Under the pieces are notes generated by a model that was not told where the DNA came from, made no database searches, and was given only the letters and a program-made list of their open reading frames with translations. From an uncultured Candidatus Rokubacteria bacterium (GTDB lineage: Bacteria > Methylomirabilota > Methylomirabilia > Rokubacteriales > CSP1-6): a DNA stretch of 64,000 bases. Positions 26,903 to 46,099 of the stretch are shown piece by piece (position 1 is the first letter of the stretch; each line of letters begins with the position of its first letter). The stretch covers positions 89,485-153,484 of the forward strand of contig CAWIZN010000047.1 of assembly GCA_963840495.1 (NCBI GenBank). Reading direction: 5' to 3'. The translations under genes and the position numbers were made by a program.

Positions 26903-26913
26903 GGATCTCTCCC

Positions 26914-30379: not shown

Positions 30380-31480
30380 CTACGACCGGGCCGCCAGCCA
30401 GGCGGCGACCTTGGGCCAGCAATGGGTCGAAGCGCCCCGGCCGGCGATGAGCGAGATATGGCCGCCCGGGAGCTCGAGGTATTCCTTGTCCGTGCTCGAC
30501 ACCGCGTCCATCAGCGCCTTCACGCAGGCGGGCGGCGCGATATTGTCTTCCTTCGCCCCCACGGCGAGCACCGGGCAGGCGATGGCCGAGAGCTTGACCG
30601 GCCGCCCGCCCATCACGAGCTCGCCCTTGACGAGCTTGTTCTGCTGGTAGAACTCCTTCACCCACTGGCGGAAGAACTCGCCCGGAAACGGCAGGTACTC
30701 GTTCGCCCACTTGTTGAGGGCGTTGAAGCCCGCGACGTACTCCGGATTCCACAGATTCCACCAGAGGTTCACGTTGGTGCTGAGGTCCATCGTCGGCTTG
30801 AGGAGCTTGAAGCCGAGCTTGACCATGTCGGCGGGGATGGTGCCGAGCGTGTCCACGTACTTGTCGACGTCGAAGTAGCGCGCGTCGAGCCACTGGCCGA
30901 ACATCCCCACCTGGGAGAAGTCGATGGGGCCCGCCATGTCGATGTAGTTCTTGAGGGGGAACTCCGGATGCGTGGTCAGGAAGCACGCCGACAGCGGCGC
31001 GCCCATGCAGTAGCCGAGCACCGACATCTCCGACGCCCCGGACGACTCGAGCGCCTTCCGGGCGAGCCGCGGCAGGATCTTCGTCACCGCGTCCTCCACC
31101 GTGAGGCTATTGTCCTCCGGGCCGAACACGCCCCAGTCGACGAGGTAGAAGTCGAAGCCCTGCTGGGTCATGTGCTCGATGAAGGATGCCTTGGGCATCA
31201 GGTCGAAGATGTACGGCCGGCTGATCCCGAGATTCGGCACGAAGAGCAGCGGGGTGCGGTAGGTGCGCTTGGAGGCGTACCGCCAGAGCCGCGACTTGTT
31301 CTTGCGGTAGATCTCCTCCCGAGGGGTGGGCCCGACCTCGGGCTCCTTCGGGTTCATGACCATCTCGCTCCAGTGCTTCATCCGGAGGAAATTGCGGCGC
31401 GTGTCTTCATCGAGGCGCGCCATCACTTCGGCGGACATGGCCGGCATCTCGGGCATCATCGTGAACAGTTGATCTTTCAT
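30380..31480 (-). CDS. phaC: class III poly(R)-hydroxyalkanoate synthase PhaC (copy 1)
   Basis: ORF 30380..31609(-). About 366 aa with lipase-box-like GYCMGA, plus ..LLFVPNLGISRPYIFDL.., ..FYLVDWG.. Start set to ATG 31480 with GAGGGGGAG upstream. Confidence 0.9.
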   Translation of the reverse strand: MKDQLFTMMPEMPAMSAEVMARLDEDTRRNFLRMKHWSEMVMNPKEPEVGPTPREEIYRKNKSRLWRYASKRTYRTPLLFVPNLGISRPYIFDLMPKASFIEHMTQQGFDFYLVDWGVFGPEDNSLTVEDAVTKILPRLARKALESSGASEMSVLGYCMGAPLSACFLTTHPEFPLKNYIDMAGPIDFSQVGMFGQWLDARYFDVDKYVDTLGTIPADMVKLGFKLLKPTMDLSTNVNLWWNLWNPEYVAGFNALNKWANEYLPFPGEFFRQWVKEFYQQNKLVKGELVMGGRPVKLSAIACPVLAVGAKEDNIAPPACVKALMDAVSSTDKEYLELPGGHISLIAGRGASTHCWPKVAAWLAARS

Positions 31481-31656
31481 ATGCTCCCCCTCGGTGCTGA
31501 CCTTCGGTGCTGCCCCTCGGTGCTGCCCCTCGGGCGCCATCGGCCTGGGTGGACTCGCCTGCTCGCTCGCGGCGTCGCCATCGTACCGCAACATGACGCC
31601 GTGCGGCAATCAATAGCCGGCGCCTCGGCGGCGCCCCTCCGCTATACTGGCGCCCT

Positions 31657-32226
31657 ATGCCGTCACCCTCCGCGGACGGACGGGCCTATCCTCGGGCCGT
31701 GACGCTCGCCGACGGCGGGACCGTCTCCCTGCGCCTCATGTCGACGGACGACGGGGACCGTCTCGTGGCCTTCGCCCGCGAGCTGCCGCCGGACGATCTG
31801 CTCTTCCTGAGCGTCGACATCACCGATCCGGAGGCGGTAGGGCGCTTCATCGAGGGCCTCGAGGCCGGCCGCATCGTCGGGGTGATCGCCGAGGACGCCG
31901 GCGTGACGGCGGGCTACGCCGCGCTCCTGCACCACGGCGTCACGTGGCAGCGCCACCTGGGGGAGATCTTCATCCAGGTGAGCTCGCGCCATCGGTCGCG
32001 CGGGCTCGGCCGCGCGCTCGCGACCGAGATCTCGGCGATCGCCCGCGACCTCGGGCTGCGGAAATTCATCGCGCGCATGACGCCCGATCAGAAGGGCGCC
32101 GTCAGCACCTTCGAGCGCCTCGGGTTCAAGACCGAGGCGCTGCTCCAGGACTTCGTGATCGACGCCGACGGCCGGACGCGCGACATCCTCGTGATGGCGC
32201 GCGATGTGCCGGCCGCCGCTCCCTGA
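31657..32226 (+). CDS. GNAT acyltransferase, storage-synthase-linked subfamily (GNAT-1)
   Basis: ORF 31657..32226(+). ..AYPRAVTLADGGTVSLRLM..LPPDDLLFLSVDITDP..GYAAL..RSRGLGRAL..ARMTPDQKGAVSTFERLGFKTEALLQDFVID.. TATACT at 31643-31648, 8 nt before the ATG. Divergent from phaC1. Confidence 0.8.
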   Translation: MPSPSADGRAYPRAVTLADGGTVSLRLMSTDDGDRLVAFARELPPDDLLFLSVDITDPEAVGRFIEGLEAGRIVGVIAEDAGVTAGYAALLHHGVTWQRHLGEIFIQVSSRHRSRGLGRALATEISAIARDLGLRKFIARMTPDQKGAVSTFERLGFKTEALLQDFVIDADGRTRDILVMARDVPAAAP

Positions 32227-32240
32227 AGAGGAGGACAGCC

Positions 32241-32651
32241 ATGACGACCGAACCAGGCAAGCCAGGCCCGCAACAGGCGCAACAGATGTGGGAGGCCGGC
32301 GCGCGCTCGTTGAGCGAGGGCTGGCAGCAGGCGCAGTCGTTCTGGAACACGGTCGCGCGGAGCTGGAGCGAGGCGGCGGGCACGATGATGGGGCAGCTCC
32401 CGCGCTCCGGGCCGGCCATGTCCTCCGAGGCCCTGGCCGCGTGGCGCGAGCTGAACGAAGCGGCCTTTGCCGTCGGACAGGCCTGGATGCGCCTGCCGCT
32501 GGCGCTGTCCTCCGGCGCTCCGCCCGCGGAGCTTCAGGCGGCGGTCACCCGGCTGACGGAGGCGCAGGGCCGCGCCTACAAGCTCTGGATGGAGGCCATC
32601 CAGAAGATGGGCGAGATGGCCAAGCCGGGGAGCGGCCCGCGGTCCTCGTGA
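32241..32651 (+). CDS. W/Q-rich phasin/PhaE-like small protein
   Basis: Last 136 aa of ORF 31944..32651(+). AGGAGGA lies 6 nt upstream of ATG 32241. MTTEPGKPGPQQAQQMWEAGARSLSEGWQQAQSFWNTVARSWSEAAG.. resembles in composition the N-terminal halves of the two PhaE-like proteins. Confidence 0.5.
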   Translation: MTTEPGKPGPQQAQQMWEAGARSLSEGWQQAQSFWNTVARSWSEAAGTMMGQLPRSGPAMSSEALAAWRELNEAAFAVGQAWMRLPLALSSGAPPAELQAAVTRLTEAQGRAYKLWMEAIQKMGEMAKPGSGPRSS

Positions 32652-33085
32652 GCACCCCCGCACCCGCACAGAGAATCGAGGCCGACTTTTTCCGCGCGCT
32701 CAATGCGCTGGTGGAGCCGGCCGTGCGCGCGGGCTGCGGCTCGCCCGGCCTTCTGCCCACCGGATTGATCGTGCTCGAGACCACGGGGGCCAAGAGCGGG
32801 CAGCCGCGTCGCGTACCCCTCCTCGCCACGGTCTTCGACGGCTGCGTCTTCATCGGCACCGTGCGCGGCGCGCGCTCGCTCTGGGTGCGCAATCTCGTCG
32901 CCGAGCCTCGCGCGCGCTACTGGGTCGCGGGACGCGAGCACCGCGGGCTCGCGCGGATCTTCGATCCGGGACGCCCCCTGCCCGCCACCGACGGGCTGCC
33001 GCCCTTCGCCCGCGCCGTGGCGGACGGGCTCCTGCCGCCTGCCACGCTGTGCGGCTGGACCTTCGCCATCATCGTCCCGGAGTGA
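32648..33085 (+). CDS. deazaflavin(F420)-dependent nitroreductase-family protein
   Basis: Tail of ORF 32204..33085(+): ..FFRALNALVEPAVRAG...VLETTGAKSGQPRRVPLLATVFDG..FIGTVRGARSLWVRNLVAEPRARYWV.. The GTG start overlaps the upstream stop (GTGA). Confidence 0.68.
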   Translation: MSTPAPAQRIEADFFRALNALVEPAVRAGCGSPGLLPTGLIVLETTGAKSGQPRRVPLLATVFDGCVFIGTVRGARSLWVRNLVAEPRARYWVAGREHRGLARIFDPGRPLPATDGLPPFARAVADGLLPPATLCGWTFAIIVPE

Positions 33086-33127
33086 CGTCGATCGACTGGC
33101 TCGCGCGGCGCTTTCTCTGAGGTCGCG

Positions 33128-34027
33128 GTGAGGGTCCTGGTCAGCGGAGCCACCGGGCTGATCGGCTCAGCCCTCGTCGCGCGCCTCGGCCAGACGGGCC
33201 ACGCGGCCATCCGCCTGGTGCGCACCGACCCTGACCCCGGCGGAACCGACGTGCGCTGGGACCCGGCGGCAGGCGCGCTCGACTCAGCACCCATCGAGGG
33301 GCTGGACGCCGTGGTGCATCTCGCGGGCGAGGACATTGCGAGCGGCGCCTGGACGGACGCCAAGAAAGCCCGCATCCGCGCGAGCCGCGTGGACGCCACC
33401 GCGCTCCTCGCACGGACCGTCGCCCGCCTGTCCCGTCCGCCCGCCGTCCTCGCCTGCGCGTCGGCGGTGGGATACTACGGCGACCGGGGCGACGAAGTCC
33501 TGACCGAGGAGAGCGCGGCGGGGACGGGCTTTCTCGCCTCCGTCTGCCGCGACTGGGAGCAGGCGGCGGCGCCCGCGAGCGAGGCCGGCATCCGCGTGCT
33601 GCACCTGCGCTTCGGCGTGGTCCTCGACCCGTCCGCGGGGGCGCTGTCCAAGATGCTCGGCCTGTTCCGGAAGGGCATGGGGGGGCCCATCGGGGGCGGG
33701 CGCCAGTACGTGAGCTGGATCGCGCTCGACGACGCGGTCGGCGGCATCCTGCACGCGCTGTCGACACCGGCGCTCTCGGGGGCGGTGAATGTCGCCGCGC
33801 CCGCTGCCGTCACGCAATCCGAATTCGCCGCGACCCTCGGTCGCGTGCTCGGGCGGCCGACCCTGCTCAGCGTGCCCGCGTTCGGGGTGCGGCTGATGCT
33901 CGGCGAGATGGCGGGTGAGACGATCCTGGCCAGTCAGCGCCTCGTGCCGGGCCGTCTCCTCGCGACCGGCTACACGTTCAGGTGGCCCGCGCTCGAGCCC
34001 GCGCTCCGCCACCTGCTCTCGGCCTGA
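33128..34027 (+). CDS. TIGR01777-type epimerase family protein (YfcH-like, SDR plus DUF1731)
   Basis: ORF 33128..34027(+). MRVLVSGATGLIGSALV.., ..RQYVSWIALDD.., and the C-terminus ..LLATGYTFRWPALEPALRHLL. Confidence 0.85.
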   Translation: MRVLVSGATGLIGSALVARLGQTGHAAIRLVRTDPDPGGTDVRWDPAAGALDSAPIEGLDAVVHLAGEDIASGAWTDAKKARIRASRVDATALLARTVARLSRPPAVLACASAVGYYGDRGDEVLTEESAAGTGFLASVCRDWEQAAAPASEAGIRVLHLRFGVVLDPSAGALSKMLGLFRKGMGGPIGGGRQYVSWIALDDAVGGILHALSTPALSGAVNVAAPAAVTQSEFAATLGRVLGRPTLLSVPAFGVRLMLGEMAGETILASQRLVPGRLLATGYTFRWPALEPALRHLLSA

Positions 34028-34086
34028 GCGTCAGACCATCGCCGCGCTCGCCGCCCGTCACGCCCGAAACCATGCCCGCGAGGATG

Positions 34087-34210: not shown

Positions 34211-34622
34211 GACTTAGCTTAGGCTAGCTAGCCGAGCGGACACATTCATGGATGCTATGCGACGACGGATTGCGAGGGTGGTCGTCGTCCATGGATGTCT
34301 ACTGACGTGATTTGGCACCCATTGCCGAGCGAGGTCGAGATGCAGAGCATGCGTATGGCGACTCGCGTTACTGACTGCCGTCGGACGATCGGCACTGAGC
34401 CGACGCGGCAGCGACGAAGGTCGAAATGTTGGACGAGTGTGATCGCCGCCACCTGTCAATGCCAGCGGATTGCGGCGTATGATCTGCGACGTCGAGTTCT
34501 GACGGGGGAGTGCCCGTGTCCTGAGTGTTGCCTCGATCCTGCCGCCTGCAGCTTCTGGCCGCCGGGCTTGCGAGGTTTCACGTTCCATATCTCGCAGATT
34601 CGACTCAACGAAAAGGTGCAGG

Positions 34623-34886
34623 TCAGAAACGATGCCGATGAAGACCATCCGCGTCGTCGATCGTGTATTTCATTTCCGCGGGGGCGAGGCGCCAGTTCAC
34701 CGCCACGTTCACGGCATTGATCTTGCCGCCGCCGAAGAGAACCTCGAAGTACTCCGGGCCGTTCTTGTCGAGGAAGGCGACGCGGTCCTGGGCAGCCACG
34801 CCCTCGGCGGCGAGCGCCCGAGCGACGCGGCTCGAGCGCCCGTCCATCTCGGCATAGCTGATCGTCCGCTGGCCGTACGTGATCAT
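34623..34886 (-). pseudogene. 5' fragment of an acyl-CoA synthetase gene
   Basis: ORF 34623..34886(-). MITYGQRTISYAEMDGRSSRVARALAAEGVAAQDRVAFLDKNGPEYFEVLFGGGKINAVNVAVNWRLAPAEMKYTIDDA is a typical AMP-binding N-terminus. It then breaks off into an AT-richer, non-coding-looking stretch. Confidence 0.65.
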
Positions 34887-34964
34887 CGGCCGGCCGCCGC
34901 GCGCTCTCGCGTGGGTGCGGACGACATTGGCGAGCGGTCCATGCCTCGAGGTGAGAGGAGGGCG

Positions 34965-35838
34965 TCATGCCGCGCCGCCGAGCCAACGCTCGGCCGTCTC
35001 GACGAAGCGCCCGGGTGCTTCGAGCTGGGGGACATGGCCGATCGCGTCGAACACCTCGAGCTTCCAGTCCGGCCGTCGCCGAGCCAACTCGCGCGAGGAT
35101 GCGATCGGCACGAGCCGATCGCCCGCGCCCTGGATGATGAGGCAAGGCGCGGTGACGCGGTCCACCATCGCATAGAAGCGGCGCCGCCGGCGCAGGGCCG
35201 ACCAGCAGCGAGCGCGTCGCATCGAGGAACGCGTCAGTGGCCCACGGCATCCGCGCGAGGCGGTCGGCCGCGAGAGCCACGTGGGCGGCCCGCACATCGG
35301 GCGCCACGCGGCTCGGATCCACGCAGCAGAGGCGCAGCATCTCGCGAACCAGGCCCTCGGCCCCGAGCCGCGCCGCGCGCCGCCGCATGTACCACGGGCC
35401 CAGCCACGGCATCGCGTAGGTGGCGAACACCGCCAGGACCTCGAGGTCGATGCGCCCTCGGCGCGGCGTCGGCTGGGCGGGCGCGGCCAGGATGAGGCGT
35501 GACACGCGCTCGGGCTCGGCCGCGGCCTCCATCAAGGCGAGGAGGCCGCCCATCGAGTTCCCCACCACGATGGCCGGGCCCGCAATGACCGAAGCGAGGA
35601 AGCGGTCGAGGAGATCCCGCTGCGCCGCCAACCCCGTCGAGCCCTTGACCGGCGGGGTCTCGCCGAAGCCGGCGAGATCGAGCGCGACGACCCGGTACCG
35701 GCGGGCAAGAGACGGCCCCACGCCGAGCCAGTTGATCGCCGATCCGCCGAGTCCGTGCACCAGCACCATGGGCGCCCCGGAGCCCCCGAAATCGATGTAG
35801 TGCACCGGCACCCCGAGGTCGATAACGCGCTGATCCAT
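34965..35838 (-). CDS. alpha/beta hydrolase, frameshifted as sequenced
   Basis: ORF 34456..35943(-) gives the N-terminal part (MDQRVIDLGVPVHYIDFGGSGAPMVLVHGLGGSAINW...VVGNSMGGLLAL..). ORF 34965..35297(-) gives the C-terminal part (..FYAMVDRVTAPCLIIQGAGDRLVP...GHVPQLEAPGRF..). The junction is at about 35192-35204. Confidence 0.75.
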
Positions 35839-35878
35839 CACTTGGACCCGGCAATAACGCGACGCAGCAAAATATCGC

Positions 35879-35906
35879 TTGACCGAATGACGCACCGTGT
35901 TATCCT
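35879..35906 (+). promoter_or_regulatory. putative promoter TTGACC-16-TATCCT upstream of the phasin gene
   Basis: TTGACC at 35879-35884 and TATCCT at 35901-35906, about 110 nt before ATG 36016. Confidence 0.35.
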
Positions 35907-36015
35907 CGCCTACGTGAGCAAGCAGCGGGTCACCGCAAAGCAACGCGTCCAGGTCAAACCAGTTCGGAGCCGGCAGTCGCCCGTCGCGGCCAGAGCCGGC
36001 ACAAGGAGCACGACG

Positions 36016-36479
36016 ATGTCCACGACAAAGACCCAGCCCCAGGCGACCACCGAGTTCCCCCCCTCAACCAGATCGGCGGCAAGGCTCTCGATGCCGTCTC
36101 GGCGCTCGCGGAGGCCAATCAGCGGGTGGTCGGCCAGCTGATCGAGCTGTCCGCTTCGGCTGCCGCGGATCGGCTCCGCACGCTCGGCGAGCTGCAGTCG
36201 GCCGCGCTCGACGCGGCCCGGGGCGTGTTCACACCGATGAATCCGCGCGAGGCCTTCGAGGAGCTTCGGCAGGACCCCTTCGCGTGGTACCGGAAGGGCG
36301 TCGCCTCGATGCTGGACGGCACCCAGCGCGTGTTCAAGCTCTTCGAGACCAATGCCCAGATCGTCTCCCGCAATACCGAGCGCTTCCAGGGCACCGCGGA
36401 GCGGACGGGCAAGGAGATCGAAAACGCCGTGAGCACCTGCACGAGCCGGCTCCGCGAGATCTACGGCACCCGCAACTAA
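36016..36479 (+). CDS. phasin-family protein, frameshift in a C7 run as sequenced
   Basis: ATG 36016 (AAGGAG upstream) gives MSTTKTQPQATTEFPP. After the C7 run (36057-36063) the natural sequence continues in the frame of ORF 36126..36479(+): ..LNQIGGKALDAVSALAEANQRVVGQLIELSASAAADRLRTLGELQSAALDAARG... Confidence 0.7.
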
Positions 36480-36543
36480 CACGATCGGCCGCGCGCGGGC
36501 CGCTCGGACGAGATCCGGCCTACCGATCGTTCCGAGCGGCCCG

Positions 36544-37143
36544 CTACGGCTCCAGGGCTTCACTGACCCCATACGCATCCATCTGCGACTGGAACCGCGC
36601 CACGTCATGGCTCAGGACCAGCAGATCGTGCTTCTTGCCCTCGCGGTCCTTGACGTGGTCCCGCAGGAGCGCCTCCGGCCGAAACCCCATGCCTTCGAAC
36701 ACCGCGATCGCGCCCTTCTGGTCCACCGTCATCTGCGCCACCATCTTCTCGATGCCGAGCTCGAGGGCCAGCGCAAAGGCCTCCTGGGTGAGCAGCCGAC
36801 CGAGTCCCTTGCCCCGCATCGCCCCGGAGACCAGCACCCGCAGCTCGGCGACGTGCGGGGACCAGTCGAGCTGCCCGCGGTCGACGGCCGCGTACCCCTG
36901 CACCACCCCATCGCGATCCGCGAGCAGGGTCGTGACCGCGCCGCGCTCGATGGCGTCGACCCAGGCGTCGATCACGGCAGGCCGGGTGATGTCGACGGGC
37001 AGGAAGAGCAGGTCGTGTCCGGGCAACGCGCGCGAGAACGCGAGCAGGGCCGCCCGGTCCATCCCGTTCATGGGGCGGAGCGTGACCATCTCCCCGCCGA
37101 GCGAGACCTTCCGCGGATAGGCGCGGCGCTCCCGGGTGCTCAT
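36544..37143 (-). CDS. GNAT acyltransferase, storage-synthase-linked subfamily (GNAT-2)
   Basis: Last 199 aa of ORF 36544..37773(-). MSTRERRAYPRKVSLGGEMVTLRPM..LPGHDLLFLPVDITRP..GYAAV..RGKGLGRLL..AQMTVDQKGAIAVFEGMGFRPEALLRDHVKD.. The ATG overlaps the phaC2 stop (ATGA). Confidence 0.8.
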   Translation of the reverse strand: MSTRERRAYPRKVSLGGEMVTLRPMNGMDRAALLAFSRALPGHDLLFLPVDITRPAVIDAWVDAIERGAVTTLLADRDGVVQGYAAVDRGQLDWSPHVAELRVLVSGAMRGKGLGRLLTQEAFALALELGIEKMVAQMTVDQKGAIAVFEGMGFRPEALLRDHVKDREGKKHDLLVLSHDVARFQSQMDAYGVSEALEP

Positions 37144-38225
37144 ACCGAGCGCTCCGAGAGCCAGGTATCGAGCTGGGGCCAGAGTCGTCGGCTGGCATTG
37201 GGCCCCGCCACGAGGCTCACGTGACCGCCCTTGAGCAGGAGCTCCTTCTTGTCGGCGCTCCCGACCATCGCCACGAGATCCTTCGCCGACGCGTAGGGGA
37301 CGATGTGATCGTGCTCGGCCATGACGTGCAGGAAGGGCACCGTGATGCGCTCGAGCACGACCGGCCGGCCGCCGAGCACCAGCTCGTTCTTGTACAGCCG
37401 GTTCTCCCACATGAGCTCCTTGACCGTCTGGCGGAAGCACTCGCCGGGAAACGGGATCTGGTCCGCCGCCCAGCGGTCGAACATGCGATAGCCCTTCACG
37501 AAATCGTCGTTCCACATATTGTCCCAGAGGCGCACCTGCCCGGCCAGGCGCGCCGCCGGCTTCAGCATCTCGAACGACGCGTACATCAGCTCGGGCGGCA
37601 CGTTGCCCAGCGAGTCGACGATGCGATCGACGTCGAAGTAGCGCTTGTCGGTCCACTGGCTGAACAGCGTCATCCCCTCGAAGTTCACCGGCGTGGTGAA
37701 GCAGGCGAGGTTCTTGACCGGGCCGTCCGGGTGCAGCGCCTCGTACAGCACCGCGAGCAGCCCCCCCATGCAATAGCCGATCATGGAGACATCGGGCTCG
37801 CCGCTGTCGCGCCGGATTCGCTCGAGGCAGTCGGGGATGAAGTCGAGGACATAGTCTTCCAGGCGCAGGCGCTTGTCCGCCGGGCGCGGCACGCCCCAGT
37901 CGATCATGTAGACGTCATAGCCCTGGCGGAGGAGGAACTCGATGAAGCTCTGGCCCGGCGTGAGATCGAGGATATAGGCCTTGCTGACCAGCGACATCAC
38001 GAGCAGCACCGGCACGCGGTACACCTCCGGCGCCAAGGGCCGGTAGTGGTAGAGGCGCAAGGTCCCGCGGGCGTACACGACGTCCTTCGGCGTCAGTCCC
38101 ATCTCCGGGGCCCCGGCCGACAGGTACTCGAGCCCCTTGACGTTGCGGAGGAGCGCGCGCTCCACCTCCTCGCGCACCCGGGTCTCGATGACGATCTCCG
38201 CCGGCGCGGCGCCCGGCGCCGTCAT
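37140..38225 (-). CDS. phaC: class III poly(R)-hydroxyalkanoate synthase PhaC (copy 2)
   Basis: Last 361 aa of ORF 37140..39404(-). MTAPGAAPAEIVIETRVREEVERALLRNVKGLEYL..., ..VLLVMSLVSKAYILDL.., ..VYMIDWG.., and the box GYCMGG. The ATG overlaps the upstream stop (ATGA). Confidence 0.9.
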   Translation of the reverse strand: MTAPGAAPAEIVIETRVREEVERALLRNVKGLEYLSAGAPEMGLTPKDVVYARGTLRLYHYRPLAPEVYRVPVLLVMSLVSKAYILDLTPGQSFIEFLLRQGYDVYMIDWGVPRPADKRLRLEDYVLDFIPDCLERIRRDSGEPDVSMIGYCMGGLLAVLYEALHPDGPVKNLACFTTPVNFEGMTLFSQWTDKRYFDVDRIVDSLGNVPPELMYASFEMLKPAARLAGQVRLWDNMWNDDFVKGYRMFDRWAADQIPFPGECFRQTVKELMWENRLYKNELVLGGRPVVLERITVPFLHVMAEHDHIVPYASAKDLVAMVGSADKKELLLKGGHVSLVAGPNASRRLWPQLDTWLSERSV

Positions 38226-38638
38226 GTGCCGCGACTCTCGCCGGCCGGTGTCGTCCCCGTTCCAGAGGCCGGCTGCTTCGTCCGCGGCGGCCGCATCGCG
38301 GCCGCGGTGGCGCCATCGGTCGGCGCCGCGCTCGTTCCGGCGGCGGTGAGCATCCGCTCGATCCCGGCCAGCCGGTCCTCGATCATCGCCAGCCGGTCCC
38401 CGAGGGTGAGGATGTCCGTGCGCGTCGGCATATTGAGCGCGCCGAGATAGCGGCTCATGCTCTCGGCCATGTTCTTCTGCATCATGACGTACGTCTCCAT
38501 CATGCGGCCCATCCACTGGGAGTACTGATCGGACCCCATGGCCTGGTTCAGGAGGGCATTCCATTGCTGCTCGGACTGGCTGATCCAGGAGCGCCACGCC
38601 GCCACCGGATCGGGAATGGGAGATGCCGGGTCCGCCAC
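38222..38638 (-). CDS. small PHA synthase partner subunit (PhaE-like), copy 2
   Basis: ORF 38222..38689(-). ..VAAWRSWISQSEQQWNALLNQAMGSDQYSQWMGRMMETY.. and ..LNMPTRTDILTLGDRLAMIEDRLAGIERML.. GTG start at 38638 with GAAGGAGGGG upstream. Confidence 0.6.
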   Translation of the reverse strand: MADPASPIPDPVAAWRSWISQSEQQWNALLNQAMGSDQYSQWMGRMMETYVMMQKNMAESMSRYLGALNMPTRTDILTLGDRLAMIEDRLAGIERMLTAAGTSAAPTDGATAAAMRPPRTKQPASGTGTTPAGESRGT

Positions 38639-38705
38639 GATGCGCCCCTCCTTCGGGTGTAAAGTGCCCCGGACCCGCCTCCCAGTCAATAGCCGGGCGG
38701 GACGC

Positions 38706-38735
38706 TTGATGCCGCCACGGCGCGCGCACTACAAT
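38706..38735 (+). promoter_or_regulatory. promoter TTGATG-18-TACAAT
   Basis: TTGATG at 38706-38711, TACAAT at 38730-38735, then SD GAAGGAGG (38748-38755) and ATG 38763. Confidence 0.5.
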
Positions 38736-38762
38736 GGCGTGCCCCACGAAGGAGGACCGATA

Positions 38763-41700
38763 ATGCCGAGCCGCAACCCGCTCGACCCCATTCCGCACCC
38801 GCCGAGGACGCCGTGGCTCGGCAATCTTCTGTCGCTCGGCGCGACCTCGCCGGTGCAGAACATGGCCAAGCTGGCCCGCCAGTACTGGCCGATCTACTGG
38901 CTCGACATGCGCGGCAAGCCCCTCGTCGTCGTCTCCGGACACGAGCTGGTGGACGAGCTCTGCGACGAGTCGCGCTTCGACAAGAGCGTGCGCGGCGCCC
39001 TCCGGCTCGTGCGGAATTTCGCGGGCGACGGCCTCTTCACCGCGTACACGCAAGAGCCGAACTGGTCGAAGGCGCACAATATCCTGCTTCCGAACTTCAG
39101 CCAGCGCGCGATGCAGGGCTATCACGCGATGATGCTCGACATCGCCGAGCAGCTCGTCCTGAAGTGGGAGCGGCTCAACGCCGACGACGAGGTCGACGTC
39201 GTGCACGACATGACCTCGCTGACCCTCGACACGATCGCGCTGTGCGGGTTCGACTACCGCTTCAACTCGTTCTACCGCGAGACGAACCACCCCTTCGTCG
39301 ACGCCATCGGTGGGCGCGCTCAGCGGCACCATGGAGCAATCGGGGCGGCTGCCCCTCGAGGACCTGATCCGGAAGGACCGCGATCGCAAGCTGCGCGCCG
39401 ACATCCGTCACATGAACGAGACGGTCGACGGCATCATCCGCGAGCGCCGGGAGAGCGGCGAGGATCTGGGACGGAAGCAGGACCTCCTGAGCTACATGCT
39501 GTCCGGCGTCGACAAGAAGACGGGCGAGCGGCTCGACGACCTCAATATCCGCTACCAGATCATCACCTTCCTGATCGCGGGCCACGAGACGACGAGCGGC
39601 CTCCTGTCCTTCGCGATCTACGCGCTCCTGAACAATCCGCACGTCCTCGCCCGGGCCTACGACGAGGTCGACCGCGTGCTCGGCTCGGACCCGTCGCGCA
39701 CGCCGAGCTATGCGCAGGTCAACCAGCTCACCTACGTGTCCCAGATCCTGAAGGAAACGCTCCGGCTCTGGCCCACCGCGCCCGCCTTCGCGCTGGCGCC
39801 GCACAAGGACACCGTGATCGGCGGCCAGTACAAGATGAAGAAGAGCTACCAGATCGTGGTGCTCGTCGGGGCACTCCACCGCGACCCCGCCGTGTGGGGA
39901 GAGAACGCCGAGGTCTTCGACCCCGACAACTTCAGCCGCGAGGCCGAGCGCGCGCGGCCCGCCAATGCCTACAAGCCCTTCGGCAATGGCCAGCGAGCGT
40001 GCATCGGCCGCCAGTTCGCCCTGCAGGAAGCCACGCTCGTCCTCGGGATGATCCTGCAGCGCTTCAAGCTGATCGACCACAAGCGCTACCAGCTCAAGAT
40101 CAAGGAAAGCCTCACCATCAAGCCCGACGGCCTCACGATCACGCTCAAGCGCCGGACGTCGGCCGACCGCCCCGACATCGCGCGGCCCGCCGCGGTGACC
40201 GTGGCCGCCGCCGCGGAGCCCGCCGCGGCGGCGAGTCCTGACCGCCATGGCCACTCGACCCCGCTGCTCGTGCTGTACGGGTCGAATCTCGGGACGGCGG
40301 AGGGCCTCGCCCGCCAGATCGCCGAGGACGGCCTCGCCCAGGGCTTCGCCGCGACGGTGGCCCCGCTCGACGACTACGCGGGGCGGTTGCCGAGAGAGGG
40401 CGCCGTCATGATCGCCACCGCGTCGTACAACGGCACCCCGCCCGACAACGCCGTCCAATTCTGTGACTGGCTGCGCGGGGGCGCGCTCGAATCCGGAGCG
40501 CTCGAGGGCGTGAGCTACGCGGTCTTCGGCTGCGGGAACCAGGATTGGGCCTCGACCTTTCAGGCGATTCCCCGGCTCATCGACGACAAGCTCGCGGCGT
40601 ACGGGGCTCGGCGCATCACGCCGCGGGGCGAAGGCGATGCCCGCGACGACTTCGATGGGCAGTTCCACACCTGGTACAAGCCGCTGTGGAACACGGTCGC
40701 CGCCGAGCTCGGCATCGACCTCGAGGGGCGCGGGACGCCGGCCAAGGAGCCGCTCTACACCCTCGAGATCGTGCCCGGACAGCGCATGAGCCCCTTCGTC
40801 GACTCCCTCGGGGCACGGGCCATGGCGGTGACGGTGAACCGCGAGCTGCACCGGCGCGACGGCCCCCAGCCCTCCGATCGATCGACGCGCCACATCGAGC
40901 TCGAGCTGCCGGCCGGGGCGAGCTATCGCGCCGGCGACCATCTCGGCGTCATCGCCCACAATGCCGAATCGCTCGTCAAGCGCGTGGCTGCCCGCTTCGG
41001 CTTCGAGCACGACGCCTTCGTCCGCCTGCGCCGGACCGGGGCACGCAAGTCGTTCCTGCCCGTCGACGAGACGATCTCCGTGTACCGGCTCCTCGGTGAC
41101 TACGTCGAGCTCCAGGACGTGGCCACGCGGAGCCAGATCCAGACGCTCGTCGAGCACACCGAGTGCCCGTGGACCCGTCCGCGGCTGGCCGCGCTCGCCG
41201 GGGACGACGAGGCGAGCACCGCCCGCTACAAGGCGGAGGTGATGGCCACGCGCAAGTCCCTCGTCGATCTGCTCGAGGAGTACCCCGCCTGCGCCCTGCC
41301 GTTTCACGTCTATCTCGAGATGCTGGCCCCGCTCGCGCCGCGCTACTACTCCATCTCCTCCTCTCCACTGCGCGACGAGCGCCACCTGAGCATCACCGTC
41401 GGCGTGGTGGACGCCCCCGCCCGCTCCGGGCGCGGGACCTATCGCGGCGTGTGCTCGAACTATCTGTGCCATCAGGAGGACGCGACCGTCATCTACGCCT
41501 TCGTGAAGGACACCAAGTCGGCGTTCCGCCTGCCCGAGGACGCCGCCACGCCCATCATCATGATCGGCCCCGGCACGGGCCTCGCCCCGTTTCGCGGATT
41601 CCTCCAGGAGCGCGCCTGGCTCAAGAGCCAGGGCACGCCGGTCGGGAGATCGATGCTCTTCTTCGGCTGCCGCCATCCCGAGCAGGACTTCCTCTACGCC

Positions 41701-42012
41701 GACGAGCTGGCGGCCCTCGCCCGCGACGGAGTCACCGATCTCAAGGTCGCGTTCTCCCGGCTTCCCGGCGAGAAGAAGATGTACGTCCAGGACCTGCTCC
41801 TCGAGGAGCGGGACGCCGTGTGGCAGATGATCGAGAGCGGCGCCGTCGTCTACGTGTGCGGCGATGCGAGCCGGATGGCGCCCGACGTGCGGCGTGCGTT
41901 CGCGGCCATCCATGCGCAGAAGACCGGCGGGGGCGAGGCCGCCGCCGATCGGTGGCTCGATGAGCTGACGGCGGAGAACCGCTACCTCGTCGATGTCTGG
42001 GCCGCGAGCTGA
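38763..42012 (+). CDS. self-sufficient cytochrome P450-NADPH reductase fusion (CYP102/BM3-like), one frameshift as sequenced
   Basis: ORF 38538..40241(+) gives the N-terminus (MPSRNPLDPIPHPPRTPWLGNLL...). ORF 39310..42012(+) gives the remainder (I-helix AGHETTS, heme loop FGNGQRACIGRQFA, flavodoxin-like and FAD/NADPH domains to ..YLVDVWAAS). The junction is at about 39308-39310 (..HPFVDAI|VGALSGTMEQS..). Confidence 0.9.
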
Positions 42013-42071
42013 TCGAGCTCGCCGCCGATCCCCGCAAGCCGCGGCACCAGCGGCGCCTCGCCCTCACCGTC

Positions 42072-43292
42072 TTGCTCGCCGCCGCGGCCCTCGCCGTGGC
42101 CGTGTTCCCTTGGCGGGGCAGATGGTGGGGCGGATGGATCCTCGCCATCGCCGAGGCCGGGGTCGTGGGCGGCCTCGCCGACTGGTTCGCCGTCACGGCG
42201 CTCTTCCGCCATCCGCTCGGCATCCCCATCCCGCACACCGCGCTCATCCCCGCCAACTGGCAGCTCATGGCCGCGCGCGTCGGCGGCATGGTCGGCGGCC
42301 GCATCCTGACCACCGAGTACGTGACGCGCGAGATCTCGCGCGTGGACGTGGCGAGCCTTCTCGCCCAGGTCGCCGCGCGCGTCAAGCCGGCCGACGTCGA
42401 GCCGCTCGTGGCGACCGTCGCGCGCTGGGCGGCGGCCCAGCTCCCGGCCGGGTCGGCGACGGAGCTGGTGTCCTGGATTCGGCGGCTCCTCCTGAGCCGC
42501 CCGGTCGCGCCCGTGCTCGCGGAGATCATCGACGTGGCGCACCGAAATGGATGGGACCAGCGCCTGGTCGAGGCGCTGGCCCGGACGCTGGTCGAGACGC
42601 TGGACCGTCCCGACGTTCGCGACGCGGTCGGCGAGCTGGTCGACGAGGTCGTCGGCAGCTATCGCCAGCGCATGGGCCTGTACCCGGGCTTCCTGATCCG
42701 CGTCGCCAATATCCTCGGGTTGATCGACCGCGACCGCCTCGTGTCGGCCCTCCGCGCGGCGCTCGCGAAGGTCGCCGACGATCCGGACGATCCGCTCCGG
42801 CGGCGCCTCTCCGAGGCGCTGGCCGAGCTACCGGGTCGCCTGCGCACCGAGCCCGACCTGGCCGCCCGTGTCGAGGCGACCAAGACCGAGCTCCTGACGA
42901 GCCCCGCGCTCAGCGGGCTCATCGAGGACGCCGCCGCTGGGCTGCGCCGTGCCCTGGTCACCGATCTCGGGAGCGATCGGTCGGAGCTGGTGGCGTGGAT
43001 CACCGGCCAGATCGAGCGGGCCCGCGAGACGCTGGTGTCGGACGCAGACGTTCGAAAGAGCCTCGACCGCTGGCTCAAGCAGCACGCCGCAACTCTCGTC
43101 GAACGCTACCAGAATCATCTGGCCGCATTCATCGAGCGCGGCGTCCATGCGCTCGGAGCGGAGGGCGCGGTGCGGCTCATCGAGGAGCACGCGGGCGACG
43201 ATCTCCAGTACATCCGCGTCAACGGCACCGTGGTCGGCGGCCTCGCGGGCGGGGGGATCTACGGCCTCCACCTGCTCCTCAACTTCCTGTGA
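42072..43292 (+). CDS. DUF445-family membrane-associated protein
   Basis: ORF 42072..43292(+). ..GGLADWFAVTALFRHPLGIPIPHTALIPAN.. and the C-terminus ..LQYIRVNGTVVGGLAGGGIYGL.. are typical of DUF445/YjiN-like proteins. TTG start is uncertain. Confidence 0.72.
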   Translation: MLAAAALAVAVFPWRGRWWGGWILAIAEAGVVGGLADWFAVTALFRHPLGIPIPHTALIPANWQLMAARVGGMVGGRILTTEYVTREISRVDVASLLAQVAARVKPADVEPLVATVARWAAAQLPAGSATELVSWIRRLLLSRPVAPVLAEIIDVAHRNGWDQRLVEALARTLVETLDRPDVRDAVGELVDEVVGSYRQRMGLYPGFLIRVANILGLIDRDRLVSALRAALAKVADDPDDPLRRRLSEALAELPGRLRTEPDLAARVEATKTELLTSPALSGLIEDAAAGLRRALVTDLGSDRSELVAWITGQIERARETLVSDADVRKSLDRWLKQHAATLVERYQNHLAAFIERGVHALGAEGAVRLIEEHAGDDLQYIRVNGTVVGGLAGGGIYGLHLLLNFL

Positions 43293-43320
43293 GCTCCGTT
43301 TCGAGGGCCGACCCCTCGAG

Positions 43321-43881
43321 TCACTCGCGAGGCCAGCCGGCCGTGTCCGGCGCGTCGCGGCGAAGGAGGCTCTCGGCGATCGCGCGGCGGATGACGCGCT
43401 TGACGTCGCGGCCGGTGAAGTCGCCCAGGAGGAGCGTCGTGTAGTGGGTGGCGTCCTCGAAGCGCTTGCCGAAGGCGATCAGCCGGTCGATGCGGGCGGC
43501 CGTCGCGGGACGAGCCGCGAGGACGTCGGCGAGGCCCGACAGGAGCGTCATGGTGAGGACAGGCGGCTGCAGCGACTCGAGCACCTCGAGCACGGTCTCC
43601 TCGCGCCCCTGCTCGGCGAGATAGGCAGCGGCGGCGACGCGCGCGGTGTCGGTCGGGCCGAAGCGGAGCACGCCCTCGAACAGCGGCGTGGCGTCGAGGC
43701 CATACCCGCGCGCGAGCTGGGCCATGAAGTCGACGCTCTTTTCCCGCGAGCCCCCCTCGAGCCCGAGGAGCTCGCGATAGACCCGCATCGCCTGCTCGGG
43801 CCCCTGGAGAAACCGCGACATCATGCCGACGAACTGGTTCATGTCGAAAGGCGGAAACGGAGAAGCCGGCTCGGGCGCCAT
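43321..43881 (-). CDS. hypothetical protein
   Basis: ORF 43321..43881(-), natural-looking composition (MAPEPASPFPPFDMNQFVGMMSRFLQGPEQAMRVYRELLGLEGG...). Family not recognised. Confidence 0.5.
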   Translation of the reverse strand: MAPEPASPFPPFDMNQFVGMMSRFLQGPEQAMRVYRELLGLEGGSREKSVDFMAQLARGYGLDATPLFEGVLRFGPTDTARVAAAAYLAEQGREETVLEVLESLQPPVLTMTLLSGLADVLAARPATAARIDRLIAFGKRFEDATHYTTLLLGDFTGRDVKRVIRRAIAESLLRRDAPDTAGWPRE

Positions 43882-44032
43882 GCCGCGAGTATGAGCCCCT
43901 GAAGGCCAGTGTCAACCCGTCGCGCAACGCTGCGCGGCTGCCGCGGCGTGGAGCCCTTTCATTGAGCGGGGACGCGCGACTATACTCGTGGCTCGACCCC
44001 GCGATCCGTCGCCGGCCGGAGGACAGCATCCA

Positions 44033-46099
44033 ATGACGCAGCCGAGCCTCAACCGTCGCCTCACCACGATCGATTCCACCTTCCTCTATCTCGAGAAGGC
44101 CGAGCAGCCCATGCACATCGGAGGCTGCATGCTCTACGAGGGCCGCGTCTCCCGCGAGGAGCTGGCGCGCCTGCTCCTCGACCGACTCCATCGGCTGCCC
44201 CGCTACCGGCAGAAGGTCGTGTTCCCCCCGTTCACCCTCGCGCATCCGACGTGGGAAGACGACCCGGACTTCGACATCGCTCACCACATCGACGAGGTCA
44301 CGCTGCCCGCCCCCGGCGACGACCGCACGATGGCCGAGATCGGCGGCCGCGTGTACGGGGGGATGCTGGATCGCGGCCACCCGCTCTGGAAGCTGATCCT
44401 GCTCCAGGGCCGATCCGACGGCCATACCGCGATCGTCTGGAAGATCCACCACGCGATGATCGACGGCATGTCCGGGGTCGACTTGACCATGGTGCTTCAC
44501 GATCTGACACCCGACGCCGAGCCCCCGACCCCGCCGGCGGCGCCGTGGCAGCCTCGTCCGCTGCCCGATCCGATCACCCTGCTGCAGGATGCCGTGCGCG
44601 ACCGCTTGACCGAGGCCGCCCAGAGCTTCACCGACTCGGCATTCGGCCTGCTCCGCCCGACCGAGATCAGCGCGCGCGCCCGGCAGCTCACGGGGGCCGT
44701 CACGACCGCGCTGCCCTCCTTGCTCAAGCCGGCGCCGAGCACGCCGTTCAATGCCCCGCTGTCGACCGAGCGCCGCTTCGCCTGGCATGGCCTGCCCTTC
44801 GCGGACATCCGCGCGATCCGCTCCGCGCTGGGCGGCACCGTGAACGACGTCGTGCTCGCCATCCTGAGCGGCGCCCTCGGCCGTTACCTCCGCGCGCGGG
44901 GCCTTCCGACCGAGGGCGTCGAGCTGCGCGCGATGTGCCCGGTGAGCATGCGCAGGCCGGACGAGCGCGGCGCCCTCGGCAACCTCGTGTCGATCATGAT
45001 CGCCCCGCTCTATGTCGGCATCGCCGATCCCGTCGCGCGCCTCACGGCCGAGCGCCAGGCCATGGAGCGGCTCAAGGGCGAGGATCAGGCGGGCGGGCTC
45101 TACTCGCTGCAGCAGCTCATGAACGGCGTCCCCGCCGCGTGGCAGGCGCTCGCGGGCGCGATCACCATCCCCCAGACCCTGTTCAATACGGTCTCCACCA
45201 ATGTGCCGGGACCGCAGATCCCGCTCTATCTGGGTGGGCGCCGCCTGCTGAACTGGATTCCGCTCGGGATCTGCTCGACGGGCGTCGGCCTGTTCGTCGC
45301 CATCCTGACCTATGACCGGCGGCTCACGTTCGGCCTCACCTTCGACCCCGCGCTCATCGCCGACGGCTGGGAGATCGCCGATCACCTGCGCCTGGCGTTT
45401 GCGGAGCTGCGGAGCGCCGCCGAGGCGGCCCAACCGGCGGCCTTCGCGGGGGTTGCGCGCACCCGCGGCCGCGGTACTCGCGGACGCGGCGGCCGCGGCG
45501 CGATAGGCACGCCGATGCCGACCGCGGACGCCCCGGGCACGCGCCGCGCCTACCCGCGCGCCATCACGCTCGACAGCGGCACCGCCATCACCCTGCGATT
45601 CATGACCGCCGCCGACGCCACCGCCGTCGTCTCGTTCGCGAAGAGCCTGCCCGCGGACGACCTCCTGTTCCTGCGCACGGACATCACGAGCCCCTCCGTC
45701 GTCGCGCAGTGGGTGAAGAACCTCGCGGCGGGGCGCACCGTCACGGTCATCGCCGAGGCGGGCGGCGAGATGGCCGGCTATGCGAGCCTGCACCACCACG
45801 AGACGAGCTGGCAGCGCCACCTGGGCGAGATTCGCATCCAGGCGGGGCAGCGCTATCGCTCGCAGGGCCTCGGACGGGGGCTCGCGGGAGAGGTCTTCGC
45901 GCTGGCCACGGAGCTGGGGCTGCGCAAGATCGTCGCGCAGATGACGGTCGATCAGAAGGGCGCGATCGCCACCTTCGAGCGGCTCGGCTTCCGCGCCGAG
46001 GCGCTCCTGTCGGATTTCGTGATCGACCGCGACGGGCGCACGCGCGATCTCATGATCATGGCCTACGACGTCGACGGGTTGACCGAGCACCTGGACTGA
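44033..46099 (+). CDS. wax ester synthase/diacylglycerol acyltransferase (WS/DGAT), read as one ORF with a C-terminal GNAT (GNAT-3)
   Basis: ORF 43988..46099(+). MTQPSLNRRLTTIDSTFLYLE.., catalytic HHAMIDG, ..NVPGPQIPLYLGG.. Then an R/G-rich linker and the GNAT domain. Start set to ATG 44033 (GGAGGA 10 nt upstream; a TATACT -10 lies at 43981-43986). Confidence 0.88.
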   Translation: MTQPSLNRRLTTIDSTFLYLEKAEQPMHIGGCMLYEGRVSREELARLLLDRLHRLPRYRQKVVFPPFTLAHPTWEDDPDFDIAHHIDEVTLPAPGDDRTMAEIGGRVYGGMLDRGHPLWKLILLQGRSDGHTAIVWKIHHAMIDGMSGVDLTMVLHDLTPDAEPPTPPAAPWQPRPLPDPITLLQDAVRDRLTEAAQSFTDSAFGLLRPTEISARARQLTGAVTTALPSLLKPAPSTPFNAPLSTERRFAWHGLPFADIRAIRSALGGTVNDVVLAILSGALGRYLRARGLPTEGVELRAMCPVSMRRPDERGALGNLVSIMIAPLYVGIADPVARLTAERQAMERLKGEDQAGGLYSLQQLMNGVPAAWQALAGAITIPQTLFNTVSTNVPGPQIPLYLGGRRLLNWIPLGICSTGVGLFVAILTYDRRLTFGLTFDPALIADGWEIADHLRLAFAELRSAAEAAQPAAFAGVARTRGRGTRGRGGRGAIGTPMPTADAPGTRRAYPRAITLDSGTAITLRFMTAADATAVVSFAKSLPADDLLFLRTDITSPSVVAQWVKNLAAGRTVTVIAEAGGEMAGYASLHHHETSWQRHLGEIRIQAGQRYRSQGLGRGLAGEVFALATELGLRKIVAQMTVDQKGAIATFERLGFRAEALLSDFVIDRDGRTRDLMIMAYDVDGLTEHLD
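45515..46099 (+). other. GNAT-3 module (domain of, or separate gene after, the WS/DGAT)
   Basis: MPTADAPGTRRAYPRAITLDSGTAITLRFM..LPADDLLFLRTDITSP..GYASL..RSQGLGRGL..AQMTVDQKGAIATFERLGFRAEALLSDFVID.. It begins like GNAT-1 (MPSPSADGRAYPRAV..). A TAG in the +1 frame ends 8 nt before this ATG (45504-45506). Confidence 0.8.

Follow-up and report, generated by a model that had tools for sequence, protein, structure and literature searches.

A GNAT subfamily encoded in a fatty acid to storage lipid gene island of Candidatus Rokubacteria and other bacteria

Class III polyhydroxyalkanoate (PHA) synthases are encoded in phaE-phaC operons with phaR, phaP and phaJ, and among the accepted accessory genes of PHA synthase and wax ester synthase/diacylglycerol acyltransferase (WS/DGAT) systems (PhaE/PhaR, phasins, PhaJ, and depolymerases or lipases) we know of none that encodes an N-acyltransferase acting on acyl-coenzyme A (acyl-CoA). 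Here we describe a subfamily of GNAT proteins encoded in just such a setting, in a stretch of 64,000 nucleotides (the window) from an uncultured Candidatus Rokubacteria bacterium (GenBank assembly GCA_963840495.1, contig CAWIZN010000047.1, positions 89,485 to 153,484), which has a G+C content of about 70%. Three genes of the subfamily, GNAT-1, GNAT-2 and GNAT-3, are present (Table 1), together with two PHA synthase genes and one WS/DGAT gene. As in class III pha operons, the set includes PhaE-like proteins, PhaC proteins that have the Cys box, PhaR, PhaJ and phasin-like genes; the differences are that a GNAT gene overlaps the stop codon of a phaC gene, whereas no described pha operon was found to include a GNAT gene, that the PhaCs score below the curated TIGR01836 cutoff, and that the PhaE proteins are short (about 130-175 residues).

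The closest described GNAT proteins are those of the YncA/MnaT, phosphinothricin (PPT) and ArsN1 group (COG1247-type; structures 3dr8, 2j8m, 5wph, 9igl, 1vhs, 4j3g and 2ge3), which are likewise single-domain proteins of about 170-190 residues, give the best matches by sequence (E 1e-13 to 1e-9) and by fold (Foldseek E about 1e-14, template-modelling scores 0.72-0.75), and have the beta4 glutamate and CoA-binding loop in common with the window proteins. The present subfamily is, however, only 18-25% identical to them and reaches 22-42 bits against curated cutoffs of 170-300; it adds an AYPR beta-hairpin and the LPxDDLLFLxxDITxP and MTxDQKGA motifs, and it alone has a conserved storage-lipid gene context. 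With Pat/PatZ, the Rv0998 lysine acetyltransferase (KAT), Streptomyces lividans PatA and AcuA the similarity continues through the N-terminal extension (E 2e-6 to 4e-5), and these proteins too are encoded with enzymes of acyl-CoA metabolism, FadD-type ligases included; acuA adjoins acsA, and Pat acetylates acyl-CoA synthetases, giving a precedent for GNATs encoded beside the acyl-CoA enzymes that they control. Unlike them, the GNATs described here have no NDP-forming acyl-CoA-synthetase-like or cNMP-binding domain, no deacetylase was found nearby in their loci, and their neighbours are consumers of acyl-CoA (PhaC and WS/DGAT) and not AMP-forming ligases alone. A further comparison is with OlsB/OlsA and GlsB/GlsA, which the locus resembles in encoding candidate N- and O-acyltransferases along with PhaJ or CYP102 as suppliers of hydroxy-acyl groups, although OlsB and GlsB come from another GNAT-fold family and take acyl groups from acyl carrier protein, and the locus has a WS/DGAT as its O-acyltransferase in place of an LPLAT/PlsC-type enzyme.

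The GNAT subfamily and its nearest relatives

The three GNAT open reading frames (ORFs) lie where a first-pass annotation of the window had placed them, and all three proteins exceed the Pfam gathering cutoff of PF00583 (Acetyltransf_1; 20.7 bits) in profile searches, placing them in the GNAT superfamily. GNAT-1 and GNAT-3 are 60.3% identical over 184 residues, in keeping with the earlier hand alignment (106 of 175 positions), and GNAT-2 is the more divergent copy, as had been said, being 45.7% identical to GNAT-1 and 47.3% to GNAT-3. At third codon positions the three genes are only 49-56% identical, and nucleotide similarity among the loci is restricted to the coding regions and ends at their borders. 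These two observations rule out a recent block duplication, again as the annotation had held, and indicate that GNAT-1, GNAT-2 and GNAT-3 are, as judged from their sequences, old paralogs of one unnamed, uncharacterised GNAT subfamily.

The signature motifs given in the first-pass annotation are real: AYPR, LPxDDLLFLxxDITxP, GYA, RxxGLGR and MTxDQKGA...FExxGF...EALL are nearly invariant in an alignment of 71 family members. Invariant or nearly so in the same alignment are the CoA/pyrophosphate loop of motif A (R113-x-x-G116-L117-G118-R119), which conforms to the GNAT consensus Q/R-x-x-G-x-G/A, and the beta4 glutamate, E103, which lies on the same face of beta4 as R105. Because the CoA motif is intact and this glutamate is conserved, we infer that the GNATs are active acyl-CoA-dependent N-acyltransferases that would share the acyl-CoA pool of the synthases. 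The three paralogs have the same acceptor-side alpha1-alpha2 motif, LPxDDLLFLxxDITxP, and differ chiefly in the beta3-beta4 region.

A confident AlphaFold2 model of GNAT-1 (predicted local distance difference test score 86, predicted template-modelling score 0.83) shows the AYPR region folded into a short beta-hairpin ahead of the GNAT core. The alpha/beta fold of the superfamily is evident from 810 matches in the PDB at E<=1e-3, and 50 of 50 among the matches listed are GNAT-type acetyltransferases; a PDB search with the N-terminal 92 residues alone gave nothing useful. The solved structures nearest to the GNATs, by profile as well as by fold, are those of small-molecule amino-acid N-acetyltransferases (4j3g, 2ge3, 2vi7, YncA 3dr8, PPT acetyltransferase (PPT-AT), ArsN1 and PA4866). 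The Pat-type protein acetyltransferases match less well (the GNAT domain of S. lividans PatA, 4nxy/4u5y; full-length Pat, 9isq; Rv0998, 4ava; Sulfolobus Pat, 3f8k), although their profile matches (E 1e-6 to 4e-5) are near full-length and take in the N-terminal AYPR extension, and 4nxy, ranking seventh by fold, gives the longest alignment (180 columns). The GNATs themselves, at 189-199 residues, consist of a single domain and carry neither of the regulatory domains fused in Pat-type enzymes.

No curated NCBIfam cutoff is reached. The best score is to ArsN1 (41.9 bits against 170); among the ArsN1, phosphinothricin and streptothricin equivalogs (NF040503, NF040504, NF040502 and NF000487) the others give 21-26 bits against 210-420, and NF058543 gives 15 bits against a cutoff of 460. 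A scan of PHROGs returned generic acetyltransferase matches only. Automatic annotations of family members read 'YncA' or 'RimJ/RimL', and since the best family similarities are to resistance acetyltransferases, one might suppose that these are ordinary housekeeping or detoxifying acetyltransferases, of the methionine-sulfoximine or phosphinothricin type, whose position among storage genes is inherited synteny without functional meaning. We consider this very improbable: no score comes near a curated cutoff (42 bits at most, where 170-420 is required), the linkage described below outlives extensive rearrangement in four phyla with junctions of 4-8 nt to different island genes, and the paralog clades track their gene partners.

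Several variants of the basic GNAT architecture were seen. Most of the long family members have no second domain and are probably mis-called starts, and the N-terminal extension of the family member P0192 has no similarity to PhaE2; the only real composites are a Usp-GNAT protein and tandem GNAT-GNAT forms. The former (P0178, L082 415-1548; 377 residues) joins a universal stress protein (Usp) domain to a GNAT-2-like member on a 1.6-kb metagenome contig, and recalls the relation of the mycobacterial KAT to Usp. The latter comprise tandem gene pairs (L004 8511-10579; L051 2121-3456) and two-domain proteins (P0165 and P0175). GNAT-2-type members also carry a C-terminal tail, 'DVAxFxAQMxAYG...EP' (window 36544-36610; P0437, P0484, P0178 and P0192), which GNAT-1 and GNAT-3 do not have and which could be a docking element.

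Linkage of the GNAT genes to storage-lipid genes

The first-pass annotation had found each GNAT gene linked to a different synthase and had proposed that the family be searched for in other genomes and its adjacency to synthase genes scored. We scanned one genome per GTDB species, which yielded 408 relatives; the locus counts given here are those of the best 80, which were compared by tblastn with the window proteins and by all-against-all clustering of ORFs. The family is large, with more than 3,284 proteins at E<=1e-10 and 284 clusters at 50% identity with E<=1e-30; its best 120 proteins are all 181-235 residues long, nearly all 187-200, and none is a GNAT-WS/DGAT fusion. The 80 loci compared belong to Methylomirabilota/Rokubacteria, Binatia, Chloroflexota (Dehalococcoidia and Tepidiformales) and Blastocatellia. 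Homologues of the PGAP1-like hydrolase, found beside WS/DGAT, are present in 56 of the 80, WS/DGAT in 55, short-chain dehydrogenases/reductases (SDRs) in 46, CYP102 in 36, FadD, upstream of GNAT, in 29, PhaR in 28 and PhaE and PhaC in 27-28, and phasin-like small proteins and a DUF385 protein also recur around the GNAT gene. Where about 10 kb was available on both sides (30 loci), WS/DGAT lies within 10 kb of GNAT in 26, and L073 is the only one without any island gene; by our own estimate, which assumes as many as ten WS/DGAT copies in a 5-Mb genome and is not a measurement, a random gene would lie within 10 kb of one in about 4% of cases.

The linkage recurs in four phyla and in at least five gene orders, which vary by lineage. 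In Blastocatellia the order is phasin-like gene, GNAT, DUF385, CYP102, WS/DGAT and hydrolase, all on one strand. In Rokubacteria it is FadD, SDR, GNAT, optionally phasA and an SDR, and CYP102, and in nine of these loci (L005, L007, L009, L011, L013, L014, L017, L019 and L032) 6-7 nt separate the GNAT stop from the CYP102 start, near locus position 10570. Binatia have the hydrolase divergent from GNAT and GNAT convergent with WS/DGAT, and Chloroflexota have SDR, GNAT convergent with WS/DGAT, hydrolase, PhaE and PhaC, followed in eight loci by GNAT-2; CYP102 is absent from the loci of these two lineages. Distant members (E about 1e-50 to 1e-58) repeat the series PhaE-like, PhaC and GNAT, the last with a 4-nt overlap, followed by the hydrolase or a Phasin_2 gene. 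Examples are the P0221 locus (PhaE-like, PhaC, GNAT and hydrolase, with 4-nt overlaps), the P0181 locus (WS/DGAT and CYP102 upstream, then PhaE-like, PhaC, GNAT, Phasin_2, DUF445 and hydrolase) and L093, where GNAT follows PhaC with an ATGA overlap.

The immediate neighbour of GNAT is just as often CYP102, the DUF385-like gene, a phasin-like gene, an SDR or the PGAP1-like hydrolase as it is a synthase. Thus the repeated GNAT-synthase linkage of the first-pass annotation stands, and recurs far beyond the window, but the tie is to a whole storage island and not to the synthases alone, and the subfamily counts among the core genes of this conserved 'fatty acid to storage lipid' island. In the searchable open-access literature we found no GNAT described as part of a PHA or WS/DGAT system, in agreement with the earlier statement, and nothing relevant on lysine acetylation of PHA synthase with a GNAT link. 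The association is real, conserved and not previously described in that literature, while the enzyme superfamily itself is known.

Within the island the paralogs keep different company. In clustering of the GNAT proteins the GNAT-2 clade is separate, and its members (from the window, Rokubacteria locus L034, eight Chloroflexota loci and the distant loci) occur only immediately behind phaC, as a rule overlapping it by 4 nt, whereas copies of the GNAT-1/GNAT-3 type sit with WS/DGAT, hydrolase, phasA or P450 genes. From the arrangement of the sequences, the GNAT-2 clade is translationally coupled to phaC and the other copies are operonic with WS/DGAT, hydrolase, P450 or phasin-like genes. Copy number roughly tracks the synthase systems: Blastocatellia and Binatia, with no synthase but WS/DGAT, have one GNAT; Chloroflexota have at most two; and the window, with its two PhaCs and one WS/DGAT, has three.

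The synthase assignments and junctions in the window largely stand as first described. PhaC1 and PhaC2 have the Cys box (GYCMGA/GYCMGG), the histidine motif GGH(I/V)SL and PhaE-like neighbours that pass PF09712, but since both score under the curated TIGR01836 cutoff they are better called class III-like than certified class III members; the first-pass annotation had called phaC1 class III. The phaC2 stop and the GNAT-2 start do share an ATGA, and the spacer between GNAT-1 and the divergent phaC1, which starts at 31480, does measure 176 bp. Within this spacer a 13-bp unit is repeated four times in tandem and is a possible operator; PhaR is encoded 2.4 kb from it. PhaR-type (PHB_acc_N) genes also lie 1-4 kb upstream of the GNAT and WS/DGAT operon in Blastocatellia loci without PhaC (L064 7934-8494; L052 8236-8838), and PhaR-like proteins may also serve neutral-lipid inclusions.

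The WS/DGAT assignment is sound, the protein passing its curated cutoff and carrying the HHxxxDG motif, and the first-pass annotation had left open whether GNAT-3 is fused to it or follows it by 8 nt. In the window the two form one ORF of 688 codons without a stop between 44033 and 46099, and the exact fused protein is on record, although no other assembly has it; in its 90% cluster WS/DGATs (490 residues) and GNATs (194 residues) are separate proteins. Compared with a farmland contig of 96% DNA identity, the window has an extra G near 45457 ('GTTGC-CGCACC' there, 'GTTGCGCGCACC' in the window). The WS/DGATs of relatives terminate in '...PAPAAAGLADAAAAAR*', a tail that the window holds in the +1 frame, and the alternative-frame reading of the window, '...APAAAVLADAAAAAR*', ends at a TAG (45504-45506) 8 nt ahead of the ATG at 45515. 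We found no GNAT domain in the 120 closest WS/DGATs. A natural fusion is rejected on these grounds; the apparent one is most likely an assembly indel as judged from these comparisons, and the natural state is the 8-nt spacing seen in relatives, a tight operon junction.

A query of concatenated PhaC2 and GNAT-2 likewise retrieved four long proteins (P0433, P0437/L093, P0446 and P0484), and a natural PhaC-GNAT fusion was rejected. P0433 and P0484 contain out-of-frame stretches, a deletion in P0446 removes the catalytic His region, and the +1 frame of P0437 (L093 10001-11695) still holds the normal PhaC C-terminus, 'SWLGGRST*', along with the ATGA overlap; P0437, P0433 and P0484 show the signs of frameshift read-through or assembly error, read-through being eased by the ATGA overlap and the few stop codons of high-GC DNA. 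At least five frame breaks or missing stops occur within 20 kb of the window (27041-28421, 34456-35943, about 39306, 45457 and 46100-46130), affecting the second acyl-CoA ligase, an alpha/beta hydrolase, CYP102, the WS/DGAT tail and the PGAP1-like hydrolase ORF, which continues to 43259; either the source assembly has indel errors or, failing that, the island is rich in pseudogenes.

Possible roles of the GNAT proteins

The first-pass annotation had read the repeated linkage as pointing to a dedicated partner of the synthases; the activities that it named for such a partner, lysine acylation of the synthase, priming or editing, are conjectural. That copy number roughly tracks the synthases, the strongest support, and that the GNAT-2 clade always follows phaC favour the idea of a partner, which nevertheless has to be widened to the island as a whole. 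We weakly prefer, as a tentative reading given somewhat less than an even chance, that each GNAT attends one synthase module, either as a protein acyltransferase like Pat or AcuA or as a partner that senses acyl-CoA, the reasons being the pattern of one GNAT per synthase, the phaC-dedicated clade, the Pat-like N-terminus, the Usp-GNAT protein and the precedent of acuA and Pat. Each copy would read the acyl-CoA pool on behalf of its own module; when acyl-CoA is plentiful it would acylate or bind an inclusion-body protein (the synthase, the hydrolase or a coat protein), and acylation would set the balance between synthesis and hydrolysis, the genes for which stand side by side.

Several observations weigh against such a role. 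The best neighbours by sequence and fold (YncA/MnaT, PPT-AT, ArsN1, 4j3g and 2ge3) are acetyltransferases of small molecules, and the invariance of LPxDDLLFLxxDITxP in all paralogs argues for a single shared acceptor over a set of unrelated partner proteins. To be coupled in translation to several different enzymes is what one would more often expect of a pathway enzyme than of a regulator. Some Chloroflexota PhaE/PhaC operons have no GNAT-2, no sirtuin was found in any locus or in the window (searched with a CobB query), the PhaC-GNAT and WS/DGAT-GNAT fusions inspected give no Rosetta-stone support, and the Usp fusion is known from a single contig.

The real partner might instead be the PGAP1/Palm_thioest-like hydrolase or the phasin-like coat proteins, the synthases being neighbours through the shared island only; the GNAT and hydrolase might, for example, form a writer/eraser pair for protein acylation, or lipidation might anchor coat proteins on hydrophobic inclusions. 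GNAT directly adjoins the hydrolase in Binatia, in the window, in L034 and L043, where WS/DGAT is absent, and in L084 (with a 4-nt overlap), and phasin-like genes flank GNAT in Blastocatellia (c16), in Rokubacteria and Chloroflexota (phasA) and in L090 (Phasin_2). The hydrolase passes the Pfam cutoffs for both PGAP1 and Palm_thioest, but the matches span only about 60 residues around the nucleophile elbow; moreover, the most constant tight junction is that of phaC to GNAT-2, and in Chloroflexota the hydrolase lies beyond WS/DGAT and does not adjoin GNAT. We think this explanation quite unlikely. In Rokubacteria locus L034 (9941-11292) the GNAT-3 orthologue still adjoins the PGAP1-like hydrolase, with WS/DGAT absent from that position.

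The main rival to a Pat/AcuA-like role takes the GNAT to be a small-molecule N-acyltransferase in a lipid pathway, N-acylating a free amino acid or amine with fatty acyl-CoA or (R)-3-hydroxyacyl-CoA supplied by FadD and PhaJ. CYP102 would then hydroxylate the N-acyl amino acid subterminally, WS/DGAT would O-acylate the hydroxyl, and the hydrolase would turn the product over; this is the N-acyl/O-acyl logic of the ornithine and glycine lipids, run from CoA thioesters, with the link to PhaC provided by shared 3-hydroxyacyl-CoA. We hold it to be rather doubtful. In its favour, sequence and fold both place the GNATs closest to enzymes that N-acylate the alpha-amino group of free amino acids (ArsN1/PPT-AT, with 32-42 bits, YncA 3dr8, PSPTO_3321 and PA4866), the acceptor-side motif is invariant in all paralogs with E103 and R105 on one face of beta4, and GNAT adjoins CYP102 with gaps of 6-7 nt in the nine Rokubacteria loci and shares an operon with it in Blastocatellia. 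Moreover, CYP102A1 binds N-palmitoylglycine more tightly than palmitate, with dissociation constants of 262 nM and 2 uM respectively (PMC11900375), and a pair of N-acyl and O-acyl transferases makes acyloxyacyl aminolipids (PMC12493201).

Other evidence stands against a lipid pathway of this sort. Islands of Chloroflexota and Binatia have no P450, and a single pathway step would not call for several paralogs per island, with one clade reserved for phaC; the phaC-dedicated clade and the P450-less islands are left unexplained unless the shared substrate is 3-hydroxyacyl-CoA. The long-chain N-acyl amino acid synthases OlsB, GlsB and NAS belong to another GNAT-fold family (PF13444), whereas YncA-like enzymes use acetyl or propionyl donors, and the presence of phasin-like proteins, PhaR and a hydrolase speaks for storage inclusions over membrane lipids. 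A more specific form of the idea, which we regard as unlikely, is that the island is a CoA-thioester route to new acyloxyacyl amino-acid (or estolide-like) amphiphiles, in which the GNAT would carry out N-acylation, CYP102 or 3-hydroxyacyl-CoA derived from PhaJ would supply the hydroxyl and WS/DGAT would add the second chain; such products might coat or seed PHA and neutral-lipid inclusions. To our knowledge no aminolipid product has been described from the phyla that carry the island. If the route were true, N-acyl amino acids would be a possible physiological substrate class of CYP102 enzymes.

Other genes of the window and significance of the island

The features of the island are collected in Table 1. 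The CYP102 gene matches P450 and a CysJ-like reductase, and the fusion of P450 with an FMN/FAD/NADPH reductase that defines CYP102 (P450 BM3-type enzymes) is seen whole in an intact homologue in L090, with PF00067, PF00258, PF00667 and PF00175. The 3' end of the PGAP1-like hydrolase is uncertain, its ORF having no in-frame stop until 43259. The DUF385-like gene lies just downstream of GNAT in Blastocatellia, with a gap of 0-16 nt (e.g. L052 10587-11021), and after phasA in the window, and its similarity to F420H2_quin_red hints at a deazaflavin-dependent step in the island. The region from about 24 kb to 49 kb also encodes SCP2, SDRs and an enoyl-CoA hydratase, and the remainder of the window holds housekeeping genes; outside the island, and without connection to it, is a gene for a RACo-type reductive activator of corrinoid enzymes (11928-13778), which has Fer2, RACo linker, middle and C-terminal domains.

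Table 1. Features of the storage-lipid island, by position in the window (curated or Pfam cutoffs in parentheses where given)
Feature	Position	Strand	Basis and remarks
FadD11-like long-chain fatty acid-CoA ligase	25115-27001	-	NF038343 393 bits, below cutoff; marks the island edge
Second AMP-binding acyl-CoA ligase	27041-28421	-	Two frames, apparent frameshift; ORF translations, tblastn matches to FadD
PhaR-type regulator	28574-29068	-	PHB_acc_N DNA-binding domain, PF07879 95.5 bits
PhaJ-like MaoC (R)-specific enoyl-CoA hydratase	29289-29849	-	PF01575 65 bits
PhaE1, short PhaE-like subunit	29846-30367	-	PF09712 31 bits (25.7)
PhaC1, class III-like PHA synthase	30380-31480	-	TIGR01836 295.9 bits (365.3); G-Y-C-M-G box, GGH
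13-bp unit (TGCTGCCCCTCGG), four tandem copies	31482-31533		Directly upstream of phaC1 start; Tandem Repeats Finder score 83
GNAT-1	31657-32226	+	189 residues; PF00583 44.1 bits; exact protein on record, in a 183-member 90% cluster
phasA, small W/Q-rich helical protein	32241-32651	+	No family match; conserved directly downstream of GNAT in Rokubacteria and some Chloroflexota
DUF385/F420H2_quin_red-like protein	32648-33085	+	PF04075 44 bits; cluster c19
phasB, phasin-like small protein	36126-36479	+	Convergent with GNAT-2; conserved in 14 Rokubacteria loci; L090 counterpart is Phasin_2
GNAT-2	36544-37143	-	199 residues; PF00583 45.9 bits; start overlaps phaC2 stop (ATGA)
PhaC2, class III-like PHA synthase	37140-38225	-	TIGR01836 331.2 bits (365.3); G-Y-C-M-G-G box
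PhaE2, short PhaE-like subunit	38222-38689	-	PF09712 29.5 bits
CYP102 (P450 BM3-type) self-sufficient fatty-acid hydroxylase	38763-42012	+	Frameshift near 39306; ORFs 38538-40241 and 39310-42012
DUF445 protein	42072-43292	+	PF04286 259 bits; also in L001, L034 and L090-92
WS/DGAT	44033-45506	+	TIGR02946 412.5 bits (309.95); HHAMIDG; 490 residues in relatives; 1-nt insertion near 45457
GNAT-3	45515-46099	+	194 residues; PF00583 45.2 bits; separate gene in relatives, 8 nt past WS/DGAT stop
PGAP1/Palm_thioest-like alpha/beta hydrolase ('lipase')	46130-46945	-	Convergent with GNAT-3; Pfam matches; alignment to L081
FabG/PhaB-like SDR	47604-48353	-	SDRs recurrent in the island

PHA synthase and WS/DGAT systems are closely studied for bioplastics and oleochemicals, and a GNAT retained across four phyla, with one clade placed at the phaC stop codon, implies that either a layer of control or a chemical step has been missing from their description. 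In the first case an acyl-CoA-dependent modification would decide between storage and mobilisation, and in the second N-acylated lipids would be made alongside the storage polymers; either could alter yields or polymer properties in engineered hosts. The island, with FadD, GNAT, WS/DGAT and hydrolase genes together, also provides a physiological context for CYP102-type P450s, the natural role of which is still debated. The Rokubacteria, Binatia, soil Chloroflexota and Blastocatellia that carry it are largely uncultured, and for them the island is a marker of their carbon-storage strategy.

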